NCBI GenBank assembly: GCA_049322655.1
Contig: JBMORP010000006.1
Span: 448,410-512,409 of the forward strand
Reading direction: 5' to 3'
Source of the DNA: Patescibacteria group bacterium
GTDB lineage: Bacteria > Patescibacteriota > Microgenomatia > UBA1400 > PJMF01
Length of the DNA stretch: 64,000 nt
The notes under the pieces: model-generated
Seen by the model: the letters and a program-made list of their open reading frames with translations, nothing else
Database searches by the model: none
What the model was told of the DNA's origin: nothing
Made by a program: the position numbers and the translations under genes
Shown: positions 9,519 to 34,490 of the stretch, one piece after another
Layout of the letters: every line of letters starts with the position of its first letter
How positions within the stretch are numbered: the stretch's first letter is position 1

Positions 9519-9787
9519 ATAAAAAAATAATCCTATAATATTGACATATTGGATGTATTCTGCTATAATAATCTTCTTCTTTGTGAAGCTACGCCAAAAT
9601 TAGCTTTTGGTAATTAATTTCATAAAGATGTTCTTTAACATCTGAAAGATTATTTGCTTACAAAAAAAAAGACGGGTCTGCCGTTTTCCTCATCAAATTT
9701 GGTGAAGAAGACGGCAGTACCTGTCTTCTTGGACATACAACTGTCCTCGGCAAGGGCTGACTATCAAAATTCATGGAGAAATTCCAA

Positions 9788-11026
9788 ATGAAGAAGAACG
9801 TCCTCTTTGCTATGGCAGTCATGATGATTGCCCCAACGGTGTTGCTTGCTGCCTGCAGTGGCTCAACACCTGAAGATATGTCCCTTGGTACAGCAAGCGG
9901 CGACTACGTTGCCCCAATGCTCCAAACAGTTCGTGTTGGCGGCACAGTTGCTGATGGCATCACCCTCGCTGTGGTTGCCGTGATTGTCGCTCTGATTGCT
10001 TCAGTGGCGGTATTCTTCGCTGTCAGATACTTCCGCGACCAGAACATGGTTAAAGGCGGTGGTATTGCAATGCCGATTTTCCTATCAGTGATGACTTTTG
10101 TGGTGGTGGCTGGGCTGATTTTCGGTCCTGGTTACTTCCGTAATTCTTATGTCGTCATTGACCAAGGCTCGGTGGGTGTGCAACTCAACCAGGGTAAAGC
10201 CGTTGGTACGCTCAACCCCGGTCCCCACTTTATTATTGGCTACCGAGACCAAGTGGTCATCTTCACTACCAGAGAATTCACTTTCTCTACCAACAGTAGC
10301 CCCCATGAACACGGTTCAGAACACTATCGAACCTGGGATATGGATGTCAATACTGCTGATGGTGTTGATGGTGATATTCCCTTCCAGCTCAGGCTGAAAG
10401 TCAACGCTTCTGATGCAATGGCTCTCTACGAAGAGTATGGCACGCTGGAAAATGCCATCGTTGGCGTAATCAAGACGCCAGCTCTCGAAGAAGCCCGCAA
10501 CGTTACCCGGAATAAAACGGCAGAACAGTTGATGACCAACATCGACGCCTACAATTCTACCGTCCAAGACCTGATTACGGCGGAAGCCGATGGCTTCATC
10601 ACCGTGATTTCTTTCGGTTTTCGCCAGCCAGACATGGGCGAATGGCAGGCTGAACGCAGTAAGGCTCAAACCGCACTGCAAACTGCCATCTACGAAGAGA
10701 ACCAAGAACAGGTCGTTCAACACCAGGAAAACCAACGCGTAATCAAAGCCCAAGCCACAGCCGACATCGCAATCATCAACTCGCAACAGGCAGCCGATTC
10801 AGCCGTTATCGCGGCAGAAGGGCAAGCTGAAGCAGACAAGATTGCGGCTGATGCAAAAGCCTACGTTATCCTGACAGAAGCGGCAGCGGAAGCCGAAGCT
10901 AACACCCTGGTCAGTGCCAGCTTGACGCCGGCGCTGATTGAATACATCAAGTGGGGTACAAAGTGGAATGGCGATGTTCCATCCACTGTCCTCGATGATG
11001 GAACAGGCGTGTTCATCACCCCATAA
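9788..11026 (+). CDS. SPFH/band-7 (HflK/C-, prohibitin-like) protein with N-terminal lipoprotein signal and Ala/Glu-rich C-terminal coiled coil; strongly GC-rich foreign gene
   Basis: Lipobox LLAAC; TM helices; SPFH core YVVIDQGSVGVQLNQGKAVGTLNPGPHFI; RBS GGAG 10 nt upstream of ATG 9788 (ORF track starts at 9773). GC and GC3 markedly higher than neighbours. Internal start at 10046 (MVKGGG) also possible. Confidence 0.7.
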   Translation: MKKNVLFAMAVMMIAPTVLLAACSGSTPEDMSLGTASGDYVAPMLQTVRVGGTVADGITLAVVAVIVALIASVAVFFAVRYFRDQNMVKGGGIAMPIFLSVMTFVVVAGLIFGPGYFRNSYVVIDQGSVGVQLNQGKAVGTLNPGPHFIIGYRDQVVIFTTREFTFSTNSSPHEHGSEHYRTWDMDVNTADGVDGDIPFQLRLKVNASDAMALYEEYGTLENAIVGVIKTPALEEARNVTRNKTAEQLMTNIDAYNSTVQDLITAEADGFITVISFGFRQPDMGEWQAERSKAQTALQTAIYEENQEQVVQHQENQRVIKAQATADIAIINSQQAADSAVIAAEGQAEADKIAADAKAYVILTEAAAEAEANTLVSASLTPALIEYIKWGTKWNGDVPSTVLDDGTGVFITP

Positions 11027-24439: not shown

Positions 24440-25666
24440 TCAAGAATGAAGTAAATTCTCATAAACATTTTCCACATCTTTATCACCTCTGCCTGAGAGA
24501 TTAATTACTACCATTTGGTTTTTACTCAGTTTACTGGCTAGCTTCAAACCATAAGCTATAGCATGAGCTGACTCTAAAGCGGGAATAATACCTTCTTCTC
24601 TAGCCAAAGTTCTGAAAGCCTTGACCGCTTGTTTGTCAGTAATCCCCACTACCTTTAATCTGCCTGCAGATGACAAATGACTTAGCTCTGGGCCAACACC
24701 GGGGTAGTCTAAGCCAGAGGCAGCACTATATGACTCAGCAATCTCACCAGCTTGGTTTTGCAATACATTACAAATAAAACCATGCACAGTCCCTTTCTTA
24801 CCTTTTAATAAAGATAGACCGTGTTTGCCAGATTTAACTCCTTTACCAGCTGGTTCTACTGCCACCAAAGAAACTTTTTCCTCTCGGATAAAATCATAAA
24901 AAGCACCTATTGCATTGGAACCTCCGCCAACACAAGCTACTACATAGTCAGGCAATCTCTTTTCACTAGCCAAAAGTTGAGCTCTAATCTCTTCACCGAC
25001 GATTTTTTGAAAATCTCGTACCATTACTGGGTAGGGATGTGGCCCAACCGCAGAACCCAACATATAGTAAGCAGCTGCCTCTTGTGCATAAGCTTGTAAG
25101 GCCACATCAACTGCATCCTTCAAAGTGCCTTGACCGGAATTAACTGGCACTACTCGGGCACCAAGTAACTTCATTCTAAAAACATTGACTTTTTGATTAT
25201 CAATATCTCTAGCACCCATGTAAACATCACACTTCATACCAAATAAAGCGGCAACCGTAGCTACCGCTACCCCGTGCTGACCAGCTCCAGTCTCAGCAAT
25301 AAGTTTAGTTTTACCCAAACGCTGGGCTAATAATGCTTGGCCAACCGTATTGTTAATTTTGTGAGCACCAGTGTGATTTAAATCTTCACGTTTTAAATAG
25401 ATCTTAGCCCCACCCCTTTTTTGAGTTAGTTTGTGAGCAAAATATAATTTGCTAGGTCGACCCACAAACTCACGATATAGTTTTTTTAACTCTGCTAAAA
25501 AACTTGGATCTTTACTGGCTTGTAGATAAGCCTGTTCCAACTCTTTCAAAACTTGCTCCAAAACCGGTGGTACAAACCGACCACCATAGGCACCAAAAAA
25601 GCCATCACTAGTGGGTTGTTGATAGTGTTTAAAATTAAATTTTGGTTGTTGATTATTTTTTTTCAT
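24440..25666 (-). CDS. trpB: Tryptophan synthase beta chain (orphan: no trpA in window)
   Basis: PLP-enzyme motifs: GAYGGRFVPP, LNHTGAHKINN (PLP lysine), GGGSNAIG; 408 aa. Confidence 0.9.
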   Translation of the reverse strand: MKKNNQQPKFNFKHYQQPTSDGFFGAYGGRFVPPVLEQVLKELEQAYLQASKDPSFLAELKKLYREFVGRPSKLYFAHKLTQKRGGAKIYLKREDLNHTGAHKINNTVGQALLAQRLGKTKLIAETGAGQHGVAVATVAALFGMKCDVYMGARDIDNQKVNVFRMKLLGARVVPVNSGQGTLKDAVDVALQAYAQEAAAYYMLGSAVGPHPYPVMVRDFQKIVGEEIRAQLLASEKRLPDYVVACVGGGSNAIGAFYDFIREEKVSLVAVEPAGKGVKSGKHGLSLLKGKKGTVHGFICNVLQNQAGEIAESYSAASGLDYPGVGPELSHLSSAGRLKVVGITDKQAVKAFRTLAREEGIIPALESAHAIAYGLKLASKLSKNQMVVINLSGRGDKDVENVYENLLHS

Positions 25667-29211: not shown

Positions 29212-29220
29212 TTTTAAATG

Positions 29221-29289
29221 TTGCGGGACTAGGAGTCGAACCTAGCCTGTAAGATTATGAGCCTCACGTGCACCGTACACTATCCCGCG
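29221..29289 (-). tRNA. tRNA with CAT anticodon (Met/fMet/Ile2-type); atypical: short D-loop, C1.A72 mismatch under the best-fitting fold
   Basis: Minus strand CGCGGGA-TA-GTGT-ACGGT-GCAC-G-TGAGG-CTCATAA-TCTTA-CAGG-CTAGG-TTCGACT-CCTAG-TCCCGCA-A. T-loop TTCGACT, U8, GG in the D-loop, anticodon loop CTCATAA. The anticodon stem has two G.U pairs. No encoded CCA. Confidence 0.6.
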
Positions 29290-29361: not shown

Positions 29362-30717
29362 GTGAAAAAAATAAAAAATAAGTTGCTGGAGACATTCAGT
29401 ATAAATTCAGTTTTTCCCTGGTTAATTATTTTCGGAGTCCTAACTAGATTATTCCTAATTTATAAACTACCACTCTGGGGAGACGAAGCTTACTCTATTT
29501 GGGCAACAGAACAAGCTTGGTTAGGAATCATTAATAACTCTGTAGATCCAGTTCACCCGCCTGGCTATTACTTATTTATTAAAGTTTGGGGCCTAATTAG
29601 TGATCATTTATTCTGGCTAAGATTGTCCAGTTTTGGTGCTTTTTTAATTAATCTTAAATTAATCAAAAAAATATTTGAAAATAATCAAGATTTACAAAAA
29701 ATAATAACTTTTCTTTATGTTTTTTCAGGTTACTTCTTGGTTTTTGACTGGCAACTTAGAATGTACACTCCTAGTTTGACCTTGATATTAGCCTCTTTAC
29801 TATTACAGAAACAAAATAAAAATATACCTCTTCTGTTCATCAACACCCTTGGTTATTTTTTTGACTATGCTTTTTTCTGGTATGGAGCAAGTTTTACTTT
29901 TTTTAGAATTATCAGTGAATTATTCAAAGAGAAAAAAGTATCAACAACCAGCAAAATCAACTTAAGCTCGTTTTTAATTTTCTTAACTTGGCTAGGTTTT
30001 AATCCTGGTTTAATCTTTTCTGGAGAAGAAGGTATCGGCTGGGCAGTTAAATATTACGATCCTCTTTTTCACTTGCCTTATTTTTTGGGTACTCATGCTT
30101 TTCCTTGGCTGAGCATCTTTTTCATCATCTTATTAAGCCACGGAGTGATAACTTTTTTTAAAAAAGAGAAAACTGACTTAATCACAGAAATAATTTTTAT
30201 CAGCACTTGTTTTCTTTATTCAAGCACTCTTTTAGTATCTGTTTTACAAATCTTTAAAATTTTTCACTTCAGAAGTTTAAATATTATTCCTTTAATGTTT
30301 TTACTAGCAATTGCCTGGTCATTAAGATTTTTTAAGAAAAAAAACAAAAAAATATTTTTTTTAATTTTGCTTATTTATTTTATTAATTTTATTGGAGCAG
30401 TCATTGTGCATCTCAGCTATAAAGATGACAATGCCGGTAAACTAATCGTTCATTTTTTTCCATGGAAATACTCTTTTTCACAGATATTAAAAACCAATGA
30501 TGTCAATCAAAAATATATTTCAATTAAAGAAATACCCACAGAAAATATTGAATATCTATATATCTGGAGTTTTTTCTATACTGCGAGAGGTAAAGAGACT
30601 CTAGGAGAAAAATCAATCGAGGTTAAAATAGAACCAGCCAAAGATTATCAAGACTGTCAAAAAATAGAAAATATTGAATATTATTGGCAATCTTACCTTT
30701 GCCCAAAAAATTATTAA
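29362..30717 (+). CDS. GT-C-fold glycosyltransferase-like membrane protein (ArnT/PMT, GT39/83-like); very AT-rich
   Basis: ~11 TM helices; first extracytoplasmic loop carries PLWGDEAYS (DE motif typical of ArnT/PMT); 451 aa. Confidence 0.5.
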   Translation: MKKIKNKLLETFSINSVFPWLIIFGVLTRLFLIYKLPLWGDEAYSIWATEQAWLGIINNSVDPVHPPGYYLFIKVWGLISDHLFWLRLSSFGAFLINLKLIKKIFENNQDLQKIITFLYVFSGYFLVFDWQLRMYTPSLTLILASLLLQKQNKNIPLLFINTLGYFFDYAFFWYGASFTFFRIISELFKEKKVSTTSKINLSSFLIFLTWLGFNPGLIFSGEEGIGWAVKYYDPLFHLPYFLGTHAFPWLSIFFIILLSHGVITFFKKEKTDLITEIIFISTCFLYSSTLLVSVLQIFKIFHFRSLNIIPLMFLLAIAWSLRFFKKKNKKIFFLILLIYFINFIGAVIVHLSYKDDNAGKLIVHFFPWKYSFSQILKTNDVNQKYISIKEIPTENIEYLYIWSFFYTARGKETLGEKSIEVKIEPAKDYQDCQKIENIEYYWQSYLCPKNY

Positions 30718-30759
30718 CTCGTCAAAAAAACAATCTCTTGATATAATTCTTGCTTATAA

Positions 30760-30833
30760 GCCAGGGTAGCTCAGTTGGTTAGAGCATCGGATTCATAAAC
30801 CGAAGGTCGTGAGTTCAACTCTCACCCCTGGTA
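30760..30833 (+). tRNA. tRNA-Met (anticodon CAT)
   Basis: GCCAGGG-TA-GCTC-AGTTGGTTA-GAGC-A-TCGGA-TTCATAA-ACCGA-AGGTC-GTGAG-TTCAACT-CTCAC-CCCTGGT-A; canonical cloverleaf, G1.U72 wobble, A31.A39 mismatch. Confidence 0.85.
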
Positions 30834-30869
30834 CAAAATCACTTTTTCTCGTCATTTCATTCCTCGAAT

Positions 30870-30906
30870 GTGAGTTCACCCTAAAGGGTATAAACAACTC
30901 TCACCC
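30870..30906 (+). repeat. Partial direct duplicate of the tRNA-Met 3' end (T-arm/acceptor) interrupted by a 16-17 nt insertion
   Basis: GTGAGTTCA[ccctaaagggtataaa]CAACTCTCACCC versus the tRNA's GTGAGTTCAACTCTCACCC (30809-30827); 20/20 identity in two blocks. Confidence 0.5.
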
Positions 30907-30924
30907 ATGATAAAAAACGGCAAA

Positions 30925-30960
30925 GACCCGCCATTTAGGCGGGCCTTTTATTCGATTGTC
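30925..30960. terminator. GC hairpin CCCGCC-attta-GGCGGG followed by CCTTTTATT
   Basis: Seen directly; positioned between the tRNA/repeat and the convergent lipoprotein gene. Confidence 0.45.
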
Positions 30961-30975
30961 TTGGTGATTTTTCTG

Positions 30976-31458
30976 TTATGGATTTCGGTAATCTATTACC
31001 TCCAAGCTAGGGTACATTTCAGAGATGGTGAAGCGATGAGCGTCGCAAACCACATCTCCTGGTTGCAGGGTTGTATTGAAAACCGTTAGCAGGGTTTCCC
31101 AGTCATATCTCTCGATACGGCTTGGATTCCCATCTGCATAAACAAGAATCTCAATAACCTGACCGAAAATGCTTCCCATTTCGTGAGGCTCAGTCCCAGA
31201 CTCCCTCCTCAAAGCAGCAATCGGTCCTTCATCAGGACCAATCACCGCGCAAACACACCAATCAGTGCTCATATTACCTTTAGGGCAATACAAATCACCA
31301 ATGGTGGGCTCTGGGATTAGAGGAGTGGTCGGTTCGGGCATTGCCGTTGCAGTGGCTGTTGCCACAACCTGAGGAGTTACCTCCGGCGTTGGACTACAAG
31401 CCGCAACAAAGAAAACCATTACCCCCAAGACAAGCAAAACAAACTTGTGACTTTTCAT
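30976..31458 (-). CDS. Hypothetical secreted lipoprotein (GC-rich relative to neighbours); start at ATG 31458 with a strong GGAGGTG RBS
   Basis: MKSHKFVLLVLGVMVFFVAAC: signal peptide plus lipobox; Thr/Pro-rich linker; Cys-containing C-terminal domain; GC about 48%. Confidence 0.55.
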   Translation of the reverse strand: MKSHKFVLLVLGVMVFFVAACSPTPEVTPQVVATATATAMPEPTTPLIPEPTIGDLYCPKGNMSTDWCVCAVIGPDEGPIAALRRESGTEPHEMGSIFGQVIEILVYADGNPSRIERYDWETLLTVFNTTLQPGDVVCDAHRFTISEMYPSLEVIDYRNP

Positions 31459-31656
31459 AATAGTCACCTCCATAAAGTCTTGGCGAAAATTCTCCAGCAA
31501 CAATCTTAAAGAGCGAGTTATCTTTCCTAGCCAGGAAAGACAGCCAGCGTCTCTAAGGCATCGGAAAATTACTCACCAGACTTCTAGTATAACAAAATAT
31601 ATCAAAATAGTCAATGTTATAGGATACAAATCACCTTTCACAAAATAACTAAAAAA

Positions 31657-31678
31657 GCCCCTTATCAGGGGCTTTTTT
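31657..31678. terminator. Bidirectional terminator AGCCCCT-tatc-AGGGGCT flanked by A6/T6 (after groEL)
   Basis: Perfect 7-bp stem with poly-A/poly-T flanks. Confidence 0.7.
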
Positions 31679-31697
31679 AATTTTAAAACAATGTTTT

Positions 31698-33314
31698 TTA
31701 CATCATTCCAGGCATACCACCAGTTGGCATAGCTGGTTCTTCTTTTGGCACATCAGTAACTAAACACTCTGTAGTTAAAATCATTGAAGCTACAGAAGCA
31801 GCATTTTCCAAAGAAGAGATTGCTACTTTGGCTGGTTCAATCACCCCTGCCTCCACTAAGTCTTCCAACTTGTTGGTCACGGCGTTGAATCCATAAGTAT
31901 TACTGTTTTTTTGTAATACCTGACCAACTACCCAACCAGCATCTTCACCAGAGTTGGTAGCCAACATTCTCAGTGGCTCAGCCAAAACTGATTTGACTAG
32001 ATCCACTCCAGCTTTTTCATCTTCGCTGGTAGTTTTAAGTTCTTCTAGAACTTTAGTTGTTCTAAGTAAAGTCACTCCACCACCTGGAATAATGCCATCT
32101 TCAATCGCAGCTTTGGTGGCTTCTTTGGCGTCTTTAACTCGTTCTTGAAGATTTTTCATCTCAAGCTCGGTGCTAGCACCTACTTGGATTACTGCTACCC
32201 CACCAGTGAGCCGAGCTTTTCTCTCCTGAAGTTTTTCAATATCAAACTCAGAAGTAGAACTTTTAATCTCAGCCTCGATTTGAGCAACTCTAGCTGTGAT
32301 ATCGTTTTTACTACCTTTACCACCAACAATTCTGGTGGTGTCTTTGGTACATCTGACACTATCAGCTCGACCTAGAGACTCAATCGTAACATCTTTAAGT
32401 GCTCGACCGGTTTCACTACTAATAAAGTCAGCCCCGGTTAACACAGCAATATCTTGCAACATCGCTTTTCTTCTATCACCAAAGCCAGGAGCTTTGACTG
32501 GCAAAGCCTTGAAAGAACCACGAAGCTTGTTAACTACTAAAGTAGTCAAGGCTTCACCTTCAATATCATCAGCAATCATCACCAAACCTTTACCAGCATT
32601 CACCACTTGCTCTAAGACTGGCAAGATTTCTTTAATATTAGTGATTTTTTGGTCGGTCACCAAAATAAATGGATCTTCAATAACTGCCTCCATGTTTTCA
32701 GAATCAGTGACAAAGTAAGGAGAAGCATAACCTTTATCAAACTCCATTCCTTCTTTGTGTTGAATCTCGATTTCCATGGTTTTGCCTTCTTCGACCTCAA
32801 CCACTCCATCTTTGCCTACTAACTTAAGAGCTTCAGCGATTTTTTTACCGATCTCTTCATTTTGGGCAGAAATGGTGGCCACTTTTTCCCAATCACTTTC
32901 TTTGACTGGTTTAGCCACCTTGCGGATTTCTTTGACCACAGTCGCCACTGCTTTATCAATCCCTCGTTTCATAATCATTGGATTGGAACCAGCAGTGATG
33001 TATTTCATCCCTATTTCACTCATCTTCCAGGCTAGAAGGGTAGCCGTGGTGGTACCATCACCAGCTACATCATTAGTCTTAGAAGCAGCTTCTTTGACTA
33101 ATTGAGCACCCATGTTTTCAAATTTGTCTTCTAGTTCAATCTCTTTAGCCACAGACACGCCATCATGGATCACATTAGGAGCTCCCCAAGCTTTATCCAA
33201 AGCCACATTGCGCCCTTTGGGACCCAAGGTCGTAGTCACTGCTTGAGCTAACTGTGTAATTCCAGACAACATTTTTTGTCTAGCTTGATCACCAAATAAA
33301 AGTTGTTTTGCCAT
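31698..33314 (-). CDS. groEL: Chaperonin GroEL; start at ATG 33314 preceded by AGGAGG
   Basis: [12 protein letters not shown]...[10 protein letters not shown]...C-terminal GGM tail ([10 protein letters not shown]). Confidence 0.97.
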
Positions 33315-33351: not shown

Positions 33352-33699
33352 TTATTTAACTATTGCTAAAATATCTTCAAATTTTAAGAATTGATACTCG
33401 ATGTCATCAATCATCACTTCGTTACCACCCCATTTCTTGTAAACTACCATATCGCCTTTTTTTAGCTCTACTTCACAACAGTCAGGAGCTTTTTCATTAC
33501 AGCAACCACCACCACAACACTGGTCCTCACAACAACCACGATCAGCTTCACCCACAGCAAGCACCTTACCATATTGAGGTTTTTCACTATCATTTTCTGG
33601 CAAGATAATTCCAGCTACTGTTTTTTGTTCACTTTTGGCTGGTTCTACCAAAACATAACCTGCCATCGGTTTTAATTGAGCGACTGAAAGACTTTTCAT
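33352..33699 (-). CDS. groES: Co-chaperonin GroES carrying an 8-Cys insertion in the roof hairpin
   Basis: GroES fold (YVLVEP...GKVLAVG...GDMVVYKKWGG...ILAIVK). Insert DRGCCEDQCCGGGCCNEKAPDCCEVE replaces the usual ~13-aa roof loop; 115 aa versus typical ~95. Confidence 0.85.
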   Translation of the reverse strand: MKSLSVAQLKPMAGYVLVEPAKSEQKTVAGIILPENDSEKPQYGKVLAVGEADRGCCEDQCCGGGCCNEKAPDCCEVELKKGDMVVYKKWGGNEVMIDDIEYQFLKFEDILAIVK

Positions 33700-33845: not shown

Positions 33846-34490
33846 TTATTCCTGAGGCACTGGCTTTTCTAACGTATCTTTTAAAGGCTGAGTTGGTTCT
33901 TTTTCCAAAACGGTTTGTTCTTTACCACTTGAAGAAATCATTTTTACCTCTGAAAGCAAGAAGCCTTCACAGTTTAAGCCTCTATCTTGGAAGTGTTTAT
34001 TAAGGTCATCTCTGATAATTGCCTCTATTTGTGATCGATTGTTTTTAATTTCATTCAAAGTATATTCACTCACCAATGAAGAGATTCTACTTCTAGAAAA
34101 CGGTCTCACTACCTTGGACACAACATTTTCACCAATGTTTTCCCAAATTTCTGGGGCATTACCTCGATCAATTCTAAACAACACCGACCCTTCAACCGAG
34201 ATATCTCGTCCATCTTTGGTCGAAGTCAAGATTGGAGTATCACCTAAGGCTTCCTTATTAGCTGATAAATCAAAATTTTTGTCAATTGAATATTCCAAAA
34301 CCTGGGCATTAAATAACTTAGCTACTTGCCAAAAAGGAATTTTAAGATGTAAACCAGGACCCCAAACTTTGGGTAAGACTCCACGACCGCGATCATACAC
34401 ACAGGCGACTTGTCCTGGTGGCACAGAAATAAAAAAGCCACCTACTACTTCATCTACTAAAAAAGAAACAACTAGTCTATCGAATTCCAT
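33846..34490 (-). CDS. SPFH/band-7 (prohibitin/HflC-like) domain protein
   Basis: N-terminal TM; ISVPPGQVACVYDRGRGV...GLHLKIPFWQV SPFH core; 214 aa. Confidence 0.65.
   Translation of the reverse strand: MEFDRLVVSFLVDEVVGGFFISVPPGQVACVYDRGRGVLPKVWGPGLHLKIPFWQVAKLFNAQVLEYSIDKNFDLSANKEALGDTPILTSTKDGRDISVEGSVLFRIDRGNAPEIWENIGENVVSKVVRPFSRSRISSLVSEYTLNEIKNNRSQIEAIIRDDLNKHFQDRGLNCEGFLLSEVKMISSSGKEQTVLEKEPTQPLKDTLEKPVPQE

Follow-up and report, generated by a model that had tools for sequence, protein, structure and literature searches.

The locus described here occupies the interval between groEL and rsmB in a 64-kb stretch of DNA that was analysed as a whole and is called the window below. The window has a GC content of 37.4% and derives from a bacterium of the candidate phyla radiation (Patescibacteria); its GroEL is closest to proteins source-named Pacebacteria, Paceibacterota, Woesebacteria or Microgenomates. 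Reading away from groEL, we find a lipoprotein gene with its promoter and a long 5' leader, a terminator, a partial copy of the 3' end of a tRNA gene, the intact tRNA(CAU) gene itself, a gene for a polytopic membrane protein, a second tRNA with a CAT anticodon and, further out, a tyrosine recombinase (Table 1). A first-pass annotation of this DNA had joined the repeat, the lipoprotein gene, the second tRNA and the recombinase into a small islet at a tRNA hotspot, with a foreign lipoprotein gene as cargo. Our analysis separates these parts, and we argue that the copy is a relic of its own.

Table 1. Features of the tRNA(CAU) locus, in window coordinates.
Feature	Position	Strand	Evidence or remark
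Xer-type tyrosine recombinase, 295 aa	25993..26880	-	core gene
Initiator-type tRNA(CAT), 70 nt	29220..29289	-	ARAGORN, Rfam 43.3 bits; C1 opposite A72
Polytopic membrane protein, 451 aa	29362..30717	+	weak EpsG match; some homologues source-named GT39
Promoter-like site of tRNA, TCGTCA-17-TATAAT	30719..30747	+	TG upstream; cttgatataattc motif kept 5' of tRNA in all relatives
Intact tRNA, anticodon CAT	30760..30834	+	ARAGORN, Rfam; no CCA encoded
Spacer, 35 nt	30835..30869	+	sole content between tRNA and copy
Copy, 5' half of T-arm (GTGAG TTCA)	30870..30878	+	exact 9-mer match to 30809-30817
T-loop insert, 16 nt, CCCTAAAGGGTATAAA	30879..30894	+	splits T-loop of copy
Copy, 3' half of T-arm, 3' acceptor strand and first trailer bases	30895..30917	+	20/23 identity to 30816-30838
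Bidirectional intrinsic terminator	30922..30948	both	common to tRNA unit (+) and lipoprotein gene (-)
Lipoprotein, 160 aa	30976..31458	-	lipobox VAAC, RBS GGAGGTG
5' leader, 126 nt, one long rod-like hairpin	31459..31584	-	folding versus shuffles
Lipoprotein promoter, TTGACT-17-TATACT	31586..31614	-	TG upstream; conserved in relatives
groEL terminator	31647..31682	-	in L008 the tRNA 3' end directly abuts the homologous hairpin

ARAGORN and Rfam agree on the tRNA gene (69.7 bits), with its 3' end placed at 30833 or 30834. It is of the elongator Met type, or possibly of Ile2/lysidine identity, and its sequence is identical in one related locus (L001) and near-identical in four others (L004, L008, L009 and L011). 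The terminator beyond it is a strong one, having an 11-bp stem with 7 GC pairs and T runs on both strands. Since a promoter-like site lies 5' of the tRNA and this terminator lies 3' of the copy, the copy falls within the tRNA transcription unit, in its 3' trailer, where it is presumably transcribed with the tRNA precursor and then trimmed off.

That the tRNA is followed by a partial duplicate of its own 3' end, as the first-pass annotation had reported, is borne out. The copy (30870-30917) repeats tRNA(CAU) in direct orientation from the first T-stem base onwards, taking in the T-arm, the 3' acceptor strand and the first 4 nt of the trailer. On the plus strand of the window GTGAGTTCA occurs at 30809 and 30870 only, and on both strands the 12-mer CAACTCTCACCC occurs at 30816 and 30895 only. 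The second copy runs on as CAACTCTCACCCaTGaTAaAAAA, with 20/23 positions matching the tRNA 3' end and trailer, and its point changes disrupt acceptor pairing. Shuffled sequences gave 0 matches, and the repeat is not a product of chance because a specific 9-mer and a collinear 12-mer lie within 100 nt of their source. No third copy was found on either strand of the window or in any relative's locus examined.

Two further parts of the structure were characterised, the insert and the spacer. The insert, described earlier as a hairpin-forming insertion of 16-17 nt, is 16 nt long; CA is duplicated at its edges, and inside lies a weak hairpin, ACCC-UAAA-GGGU. It does not recur in the window and has no match in IMG/VR, which rules it out as a repeated mini-element. 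The tRNA-to-copy gap, 35-36 nt depending on where the tRNA is taken to end, is non-coding and does not resemble the 5' part of the tRNA (p = 0.58), and the sequences 3' of the two copies differ from each other. This layout of copy, unrelated spacer, copy and different downstream sequence is neither that of a simple tandem duplication nor that of a decayed second tRNA gene, and both were rejected, the first on the differing downstream sequences and the second on a spacer unlike the 5' two-thirds of the tRNA.

To place the structure in context we compared the locus with contigs of relatives, which came from lipoprotein homologues and were supplemented with contigs fetched through GroEL. All relatives share a synteny block on one side (PBP...SmpB-TsaD-Sua5/TsaE-Band7-GroES-GroEL) and another on the other side (RsmB, which is missing in some, followed by DivIC-Xer-TrpRS-FtsH). 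The interval between the two blocks varies, and the divergent pair formed by tRNA-Met and the initiator-type tRNA is always inside it. One variable part is the slot that separates the groEL terminator from the tRNA-Met 3' end. This slot is empty in L008 and holds a GNAT acetyltransferase in L009; it holds the lipoprotein gene and its leader in the window and L001-L003, the same pair with an additional 114-aa gene in L004/5, a lipoprotein homologue (42% identical) in L011-L014, a more remote family member in L016 and, in L017, a candidate remote member whose N-terminus resembles the family representative P0168 by eye. The 451-aa gene is likewise variable: it lies between the two tRNAs in the window, L001 and L011-L013 and is absent from L004, L008, L009 and L015-L017. 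With a rigid synteny block on either side, the groEL-to-rsmB interval is a zone of plasticity.

Within this zone the copy has a very narrow distribution. Among the loci compared, it is present in the window and in L001 and L002 only; it is absent from L004/5, L008, L009, L011-L014 and L016, where the tRNA directly precedes a terminator or a gene. This tally leaves out L003, the closest genome by flanking genes, because its contig ends exactly at CAACTCTCAC; the neighbouring 451-aa gene of the L003 assembly, sought to settle the matter, has no copy on record. The first-pass annotation had recommended comparison with related genomes, asking whether the lipoprotein gene or the repeat is missing there. 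The repeat is confined to the nearest relatives and is not a conserved functional element of all of them. The lipoprotein gene is missing only in some relatives (L008 and L009) and is kept in others that have no repeat.

The copies that do exist are decaying. The 5' half of the T-arm has the same sequence in L001 and L002 as in the window, and the T-loop insert is 32 nt long in both, with an extra CACTTGTACTCTAGAG. On the acceptor strand L001 carries a single change (CCCATGGTACAAA / CCCATGGTAC) and the window copy carries 3. Overall, the window and L001 copies differ by 3 substitutions in 47 nt and by the T-loop indel, and 4-fold sites near the copy differ by 12-14% between the same two loci. 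Because we read 3/47 substitutions as no lower than this local 4-fold rate, the copy shows no sign of constraint. Homology between the window and L001 spacers is significant (p = 0.0005), yet ~38% of their positions differ, threefold the local neutral rate.

A T-arm-like hairpin with an insert in a tRNA trailer could also be a functional RNA, acting as a processing signal, a decoy or a tRNA-like small RNA. In its favour, the element is located inside the tRNA transcription unit, and the window and L001 have the same T-arm halves and insert edges despite the divergence of the spacer. However, its fold is no better than that of shuffled sequences (z = -0.68 and +0.55 for the element alone, neither significant), its acceptor strand is unpaired and has mutated differently in the lineages of the window and L001, the window copy lacks half of the insert, and no relative outside the closest clade has the element. 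A search of 30835-30920 against Rfam gave no match even at E <= 10 apart from noise, ARAGORN called no tRNA at the copy, and the copy neither reaches an Rfam threshold score nor forms a cloverleaf or a mini-helix with a paired acceptor. With conservation no better than the local neutral rate, a functional RNA appears very improbable, and an interrupted T-arm in a trailer is much less likely to be a functional tRNA-derived element than the lipoprotein leader discussed below is to be a novel RNA. From the sequence comparisons we read the copy as a young, non-functional displaced tDNA fragment with a divergence consistent with neutral drift, and we estimate at roughly 80% the probability that a rearrangement at the tRNA 3' end left it behind as a non-functional relic.

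What kind of rearrangement left this relic is less clear-cut. The likeliest origin, to which we give about even odds, is an insertion of DNA at the T-stem/3' end of the tRNA gene, of the tyrosine-integrase type, with nearly all of the cargo later deleted. DNA inserting at this position would supply its own replacement 3' end, the same route by which tyrosine-integrase elements regenerate their tRNA target, and the original 3' end would be displaced together with the original downstream DNA, here the terminator and the lipoprotein gene. Almost all of the inserted DNA would have been deleted afterwards, leaving 35-36 nt, and the orphan fragment would then have decayed through acceptor-strand substitutions and a T-loop indel, whose length is now 16 nt in the window and 32 nt in L001. 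The sequence 3' of the copy in L001 (CAAATACTTTAAAAACAGCAAAAACCCGCC) is homologous to that following the 3'-end sequence in L003, as is expected if the second copy is the ancestral 3' end and has kept the downstream DNA that it had before the event. An empty-site allele would join GTGAGTTCAACTCTCACCCCTGGTAC directly to AAAATACTTT/AAAAACGGC, and the predicted attP junction would read NNTCGAAT-GTGAGTTCAACTCTCACCCCTGGTAC-AAA[AG].

Several observations bear on how far this insertion history can be taken. There is no integrase or other element gene between the copies, and none of the relatives examined has an occupied site. The first-pass annotation had suggested searching the repeat and its insertion against phage and other mobile-element att sites, and no relevant match emerged: IMG/VR holds no match to the exact 3' end, the junction or the predicted attP, and GenBank phages gave generic tRNA similarity only (query positions 2-107). 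L018, the sole match to a degenerate pattern with 17 specified bases, was discarded as a chance match inside unrelated sequence. The ~38% divergence of the spacer against 12-14% at neutral sites is not predicted by a single inherited scar and counts against it. Of the integration scar as first proposed, what stands is a directly oriented 3' fragment with its start at the T-stem and a variable slot beside it; what does not stand is any integrase, cargo, attP or occupied site to go with it. An integrase-type origin followed by deletion of the cargo is thus something that we infer from the anatomy of the fragment.

The same negative results, together with an entire structure of less than 100 nt and the many small indels that separate the window from L001 in this region, suit a local rearrangement that involved no mobile element. 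Through replication slippage, template switching or break repair, a copy of the final ~30 nt of the tRNA gene would have ended up in the trailer of that gene, the spacer would be filler DNA, and the product would still be a non-functional fossil. Such an event did not yield a tandem duplication, since the sequences after the first and second copies differ, and the borders, at the T-stem start and at +4 past the 3' end, suit att identity blocks better than random breaks. A non-integrase origin by template switching or patch repair takes about as many steps as insertion and deletion. We consider a local event possible, though on the doubtful side.

We next turn to the lipoprotein gene, which is central to the islet model. 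Its position, VAAC lipobox and GGAGGTG ribosome-binding site are as first described. The protein consists of the lipobox, a Pro/Thr/Ala-rich linker and a domain of ~100 residues with four conserved cysteines, and the family is recognisable by the motif YCPxGNMxxDWCVCA...ALRR...EPHE...YDW...GDxVCD. The N-terminus, MKSHKFVLLVLGVMVFFVAAC, has the form of a signal peptide ending in a lipobox, and its Cys21 is invariant in an alignment of five homologues, so that the protein is predicted to be lipidated; other family members have the lipobox variants LAAC, LSAC, LVAC and LTGC. No match was found in Pfam or NCBIfam, and an AlphaFold2 model (pLDDT 66) matched no fold in the PDB. Homologues form three clusters only among 5.8 billion proteins, and ~11 genuine family representatives were found among 1.84 billion; every representative examined is a small lipoprotein from a low-GC genome, and most of them are encoded in the same slot.

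The compositional deviation of this gene, noted in the first pass as a GC content of ~48%, is statistically real. Its GC is 0.480 against 0.374 for the window and ranks 2/55 among the genes, its GC3 is 0.44 against a mean of 0.29, and z is +2.9 for both GC and GC3, a deviation of the kind expected of a horizontally acquired gene. The further step, that the gene is foreign, does not hold. Every genome with a recognisable family member shows an excess of ~8-13 points over its background: 0.484 against 0.366 in L001, 0.484 against 0.368 in L003, 0.459 against 0.358 in L004, 0.425 against 0.348 in L011, 0.529 against 0.396 in L016, 0.456 against 0.357 in L019 and 0.393 against 0.316 in L020. High GC therefore characterises the family and follows the composition of the host; it does not mark a recent import. 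We found neither unrelated matching donors nor a deviation that the orthologues lack.

Synteny gives the gene its age. Homologues that are 42-93% identical lie beside groEL and tRNA-Met in relatives; the gene occupies the same slot with the conserved leader in L004 and L011-L014, and L016 has a family member there. The divergence of 4-fold sites in these relatives, at 55-61%, is near saturation, and their GroEL is 87-90% identical. Because the lipoprotein gene sits in the same slot in diverged relatives that lack the repeat, it predates the repeat by a wide margin. Together with its promoter and structured leader, it has long been kept in the slot by vertical inheritance and is not cargo.

The islet model can draw on the outlying GC and GC3 of the gene and on its absence from L008 and L009, in which groEL or the GNAT gene directly adjoins the tRNA. 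Against it, the gene lies outside the repeat pair, which encloses only 35-36 nt, and no far-side copy of the repeat exists; the gene and leader are syntenic in repeat-free lineages at saturated synonymous divergence, the GC excess recurs in every host, and the family is confined to a handful of similar low-GC genomes. The GC-rich hairpins that had been noted on both sides of the gene are present, and they are the bidirectional terminator and part of the 5'-UTR hairpin. The remaining members of the proposed islet are likewise ordinary residents. The second CAT tRNA, which reads CGCGGGA...TCCCGCAA, is there as described, and C1 opposite A72 is a hallmark of bacterial initiators; it belongs to no islet, being the conserved initiator-type partner divergent from tRNA-Met in all relatives. 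The tyrosine recombinase ~4 kb away is also real and is unrelated to the repeat. It is always located between DivIC/FtsB and TrpRS, its best matches are XerA/XerC/XerD models, and its conservation over eight genomes (83-94% identity) is on a par with that of GroEL. This identity and the fixed synteny in all relatives mark it as a core gene, a predicted housekeeping Xer outside any islet. We regard an islet with the lipoprotein gene as its cargo as scarcely credible. The apparent islet resolves into three unrelated things: a young scar, an old lineage-specific lipoprotein gene of high GC and a housekeeping Xer. The useful outcome is mostly negative, in that a GC-rich gene, a tRNA repeat and a tyrosine recombinase together mimicked an islet.

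What stands out most in this interval is the lipoprotein mRNA leader. It has a predicted folding energy of -48.2 kcal/mol (z = -5.07), 0/200 shuffles were as stable, and the fold leaves the ribosome-binding site free. About 85 nt of it are almost invariant in five distinct lineages, whose lipoproteins are only 43-59% identical and whose 4-fold sites are 55-61% diverged; compared with L004 there are 5 differences, against a divergence of ~55-60% at neutral sites. L016 has a different leader sequence that also forms a long hairpin and has the GCTCTTTAA tail in common. The leader is single-copy and always lies 5' of the lipoprotein gene. It has no match in Rfam. Scans of genomes and metagenomes with leader 20/22-mers recovered only the contig of L003 itself, and a looser pattern recovered two L011-like contigs. 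Compensatory changes occur in 2/35 pairs with an unfavourable covariation term, there being too little variation to prove the structure. The episymbiotic lifestyle proposed for Patescibacteria gives surface proteins, and the way they are regulated, a central role. We tentatively suggest that the leader, rather than the tRNA fragment, is the unusual element of this locus and may represent a novel RNA, cis-regulatory or protein-binding, through which a clade-specific surface lipoprotein is controlled. It is a modestly interesting side lead, and a clade-restricted family of small lipoproteins with a strongly conserved rod-like leader may merit a separate look.

Each of the three elements can be set beside a known system. 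The ompA and aprE leaders are stabilising or regulatory stem-loops at the 5' ends of bacterial mRNAs. The lipoprotein leader shares with them a stable hairpin at or near the predicted 5' end and a free ribosome-binding site; it differs in being far longer (~110 nt paired), in belonging to no Rfam family and in being more conserved in sequence than stability alone would need. The recombinase resembles chromosomal Xer proteins of the XerC/XerD/XerA type in having a SAM-like N-terminal domain and a catalytic domain and in being single, highly conserved and fixed in synteny, whereas its scores lie under the equivalog cut-offs (165 bits versus 220-335).

For the copy, the closest comparison is with the displaced tDNA fragments catalogued by Islander, in which 3760/3919 mapped islands have a 3' tDNA fragment and 1836 have a site in the T-stem region (PMC4383910). 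The present locus differs from these islands in its gap of 35-36 nt, its interrupted T-loop and the lack of a known cognate attP in the viral data searched. No tyrosine integrase lies between tDNA and fragment, the sole recombinase being 4 kb off on the other side, and no island-length cargo that would be missing from the relatives' empty site lies between the putative att sites. What it shares with them is an intact, regenerated tRNA gene followed, on the same replicon, by a cognate direct-orientation copy of its 3' part, with a fragment that starts in the T-stem region and ends just past the 3' end, at a locus that varies among relatives (PMC4383910). Seen in this light, the scar is a minor and ordinary footprint, and one more example suggesting that the tRNA-Met 3' end has served as a site of DNA insertion in this Patescibacteria lineage.

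The synonymous divergence of the window's groEL gene suggests that homologous recombination brought in this allele, with one breakpoint near the spacer between groEL and the lipoprotein gene. Between the window and each of two relatives' contigs (L001 and L003), 38-39% of the 4-fold sites of groEL differ, despite 97-99% identity of the protein. In the lipoprotein, groES and band7 genes that flank groEL, just 5-8% of 4-fold sites differ between the window and L003. The public title of the record holding L003 and L007 (CAYSQA010000007.1, GCA_964433225.1) is 'uncultured Pseudomonadales bacterium'. Because its gene content, its 37% GC and its GroEL relatives are Patescibacteria-like, this contig was probably either mislabelled or misbinned. 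GroES, encoded next to groEL in the window, has a Cys-rich insert in its interior (CCEDQCCGGGCCNEKAPDCCE). The insert was found in 8/8 relatives compared, and its length and sequence are highly variable among them, with the whole protein spanning 109-143 aa.

Locations of the features discussed, in the window and in relatives' contigs
Feature	Location	Strand	Remark
Band_7/SPFH-domain gene, 417 aa	window 9773-11026	+	
408-aa ORF	window 24440-25666	-	flanked by TrpRS and the Xer gene
Polytopic membrane protein, 451 aa	window 29362-30717	+	weak EpsG match
Spacer, tRNA to partial copy	window 30835-30869		
Spacer counterpart	L001 8167-8200		
Lipoprotein gene promoter and leader	window 31459-31614	-	
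Promoter/leader counterpart	L001 7417-7545		
Promoter/leader counterpart	L003 9872-10000		
Promoter/leader counterpart	L004 9871-10000		
Promoter/leader counterpart	L011 11733-11867		
Promoter/leader counterpart	L016 9761-9893		
groEL	window 31698-33314	-	set against L001 and L003
GroES gene	window 33352-33699	-	
Second Band_7 gene, ordinary	window 33846-34490		

The 417-aa Band_7/SPFH gene is the top compositional outlier of the window (GC 0.51 against a mean of 0.37; GC3 0.54 against 0.29); as a candidate for foreign DNA it outranks the lipoprotein gene. The 126-nt leader of the lipoprotein gene folds into a single rod-shaped hairpin of great stability (-48.2 kcal/mol, z = -5.07), and about 85 nt of it are nearly invariant between lineages whose synonymous divergence is saturated. 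The leader occurs once per genome, and a comparison with Rfam returned no match.

The spacer between tRNA-Met and the partial copy of its 3' end is homologous in the window and L001, yet about 38% of its positions differ, roughly three times the divergence at nearby 4-fold sites; in its right-hand part all differences are, by eye, transitions. Farther away, the 408-aa ORF reads, from its translation alone, like a putative tryptophan synthase beta chain, and it is missing from the TrpRS/Xer interval in four relatives' loci (L004, L008, L009 and L011).

The gene for the 451-aa membrane protein is likewise present at the tRNA pair in some genomes and absent in others, the second such polymorphism there. 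It separates tRNA-Met from the initiator-type tRNA in the window, L001 and L011-L013; in L004, L008, L009 and L015-L017 the two tRNAs lie only about 80-120 nt apart. Some homologues of this protein are named GT39 in their source records.
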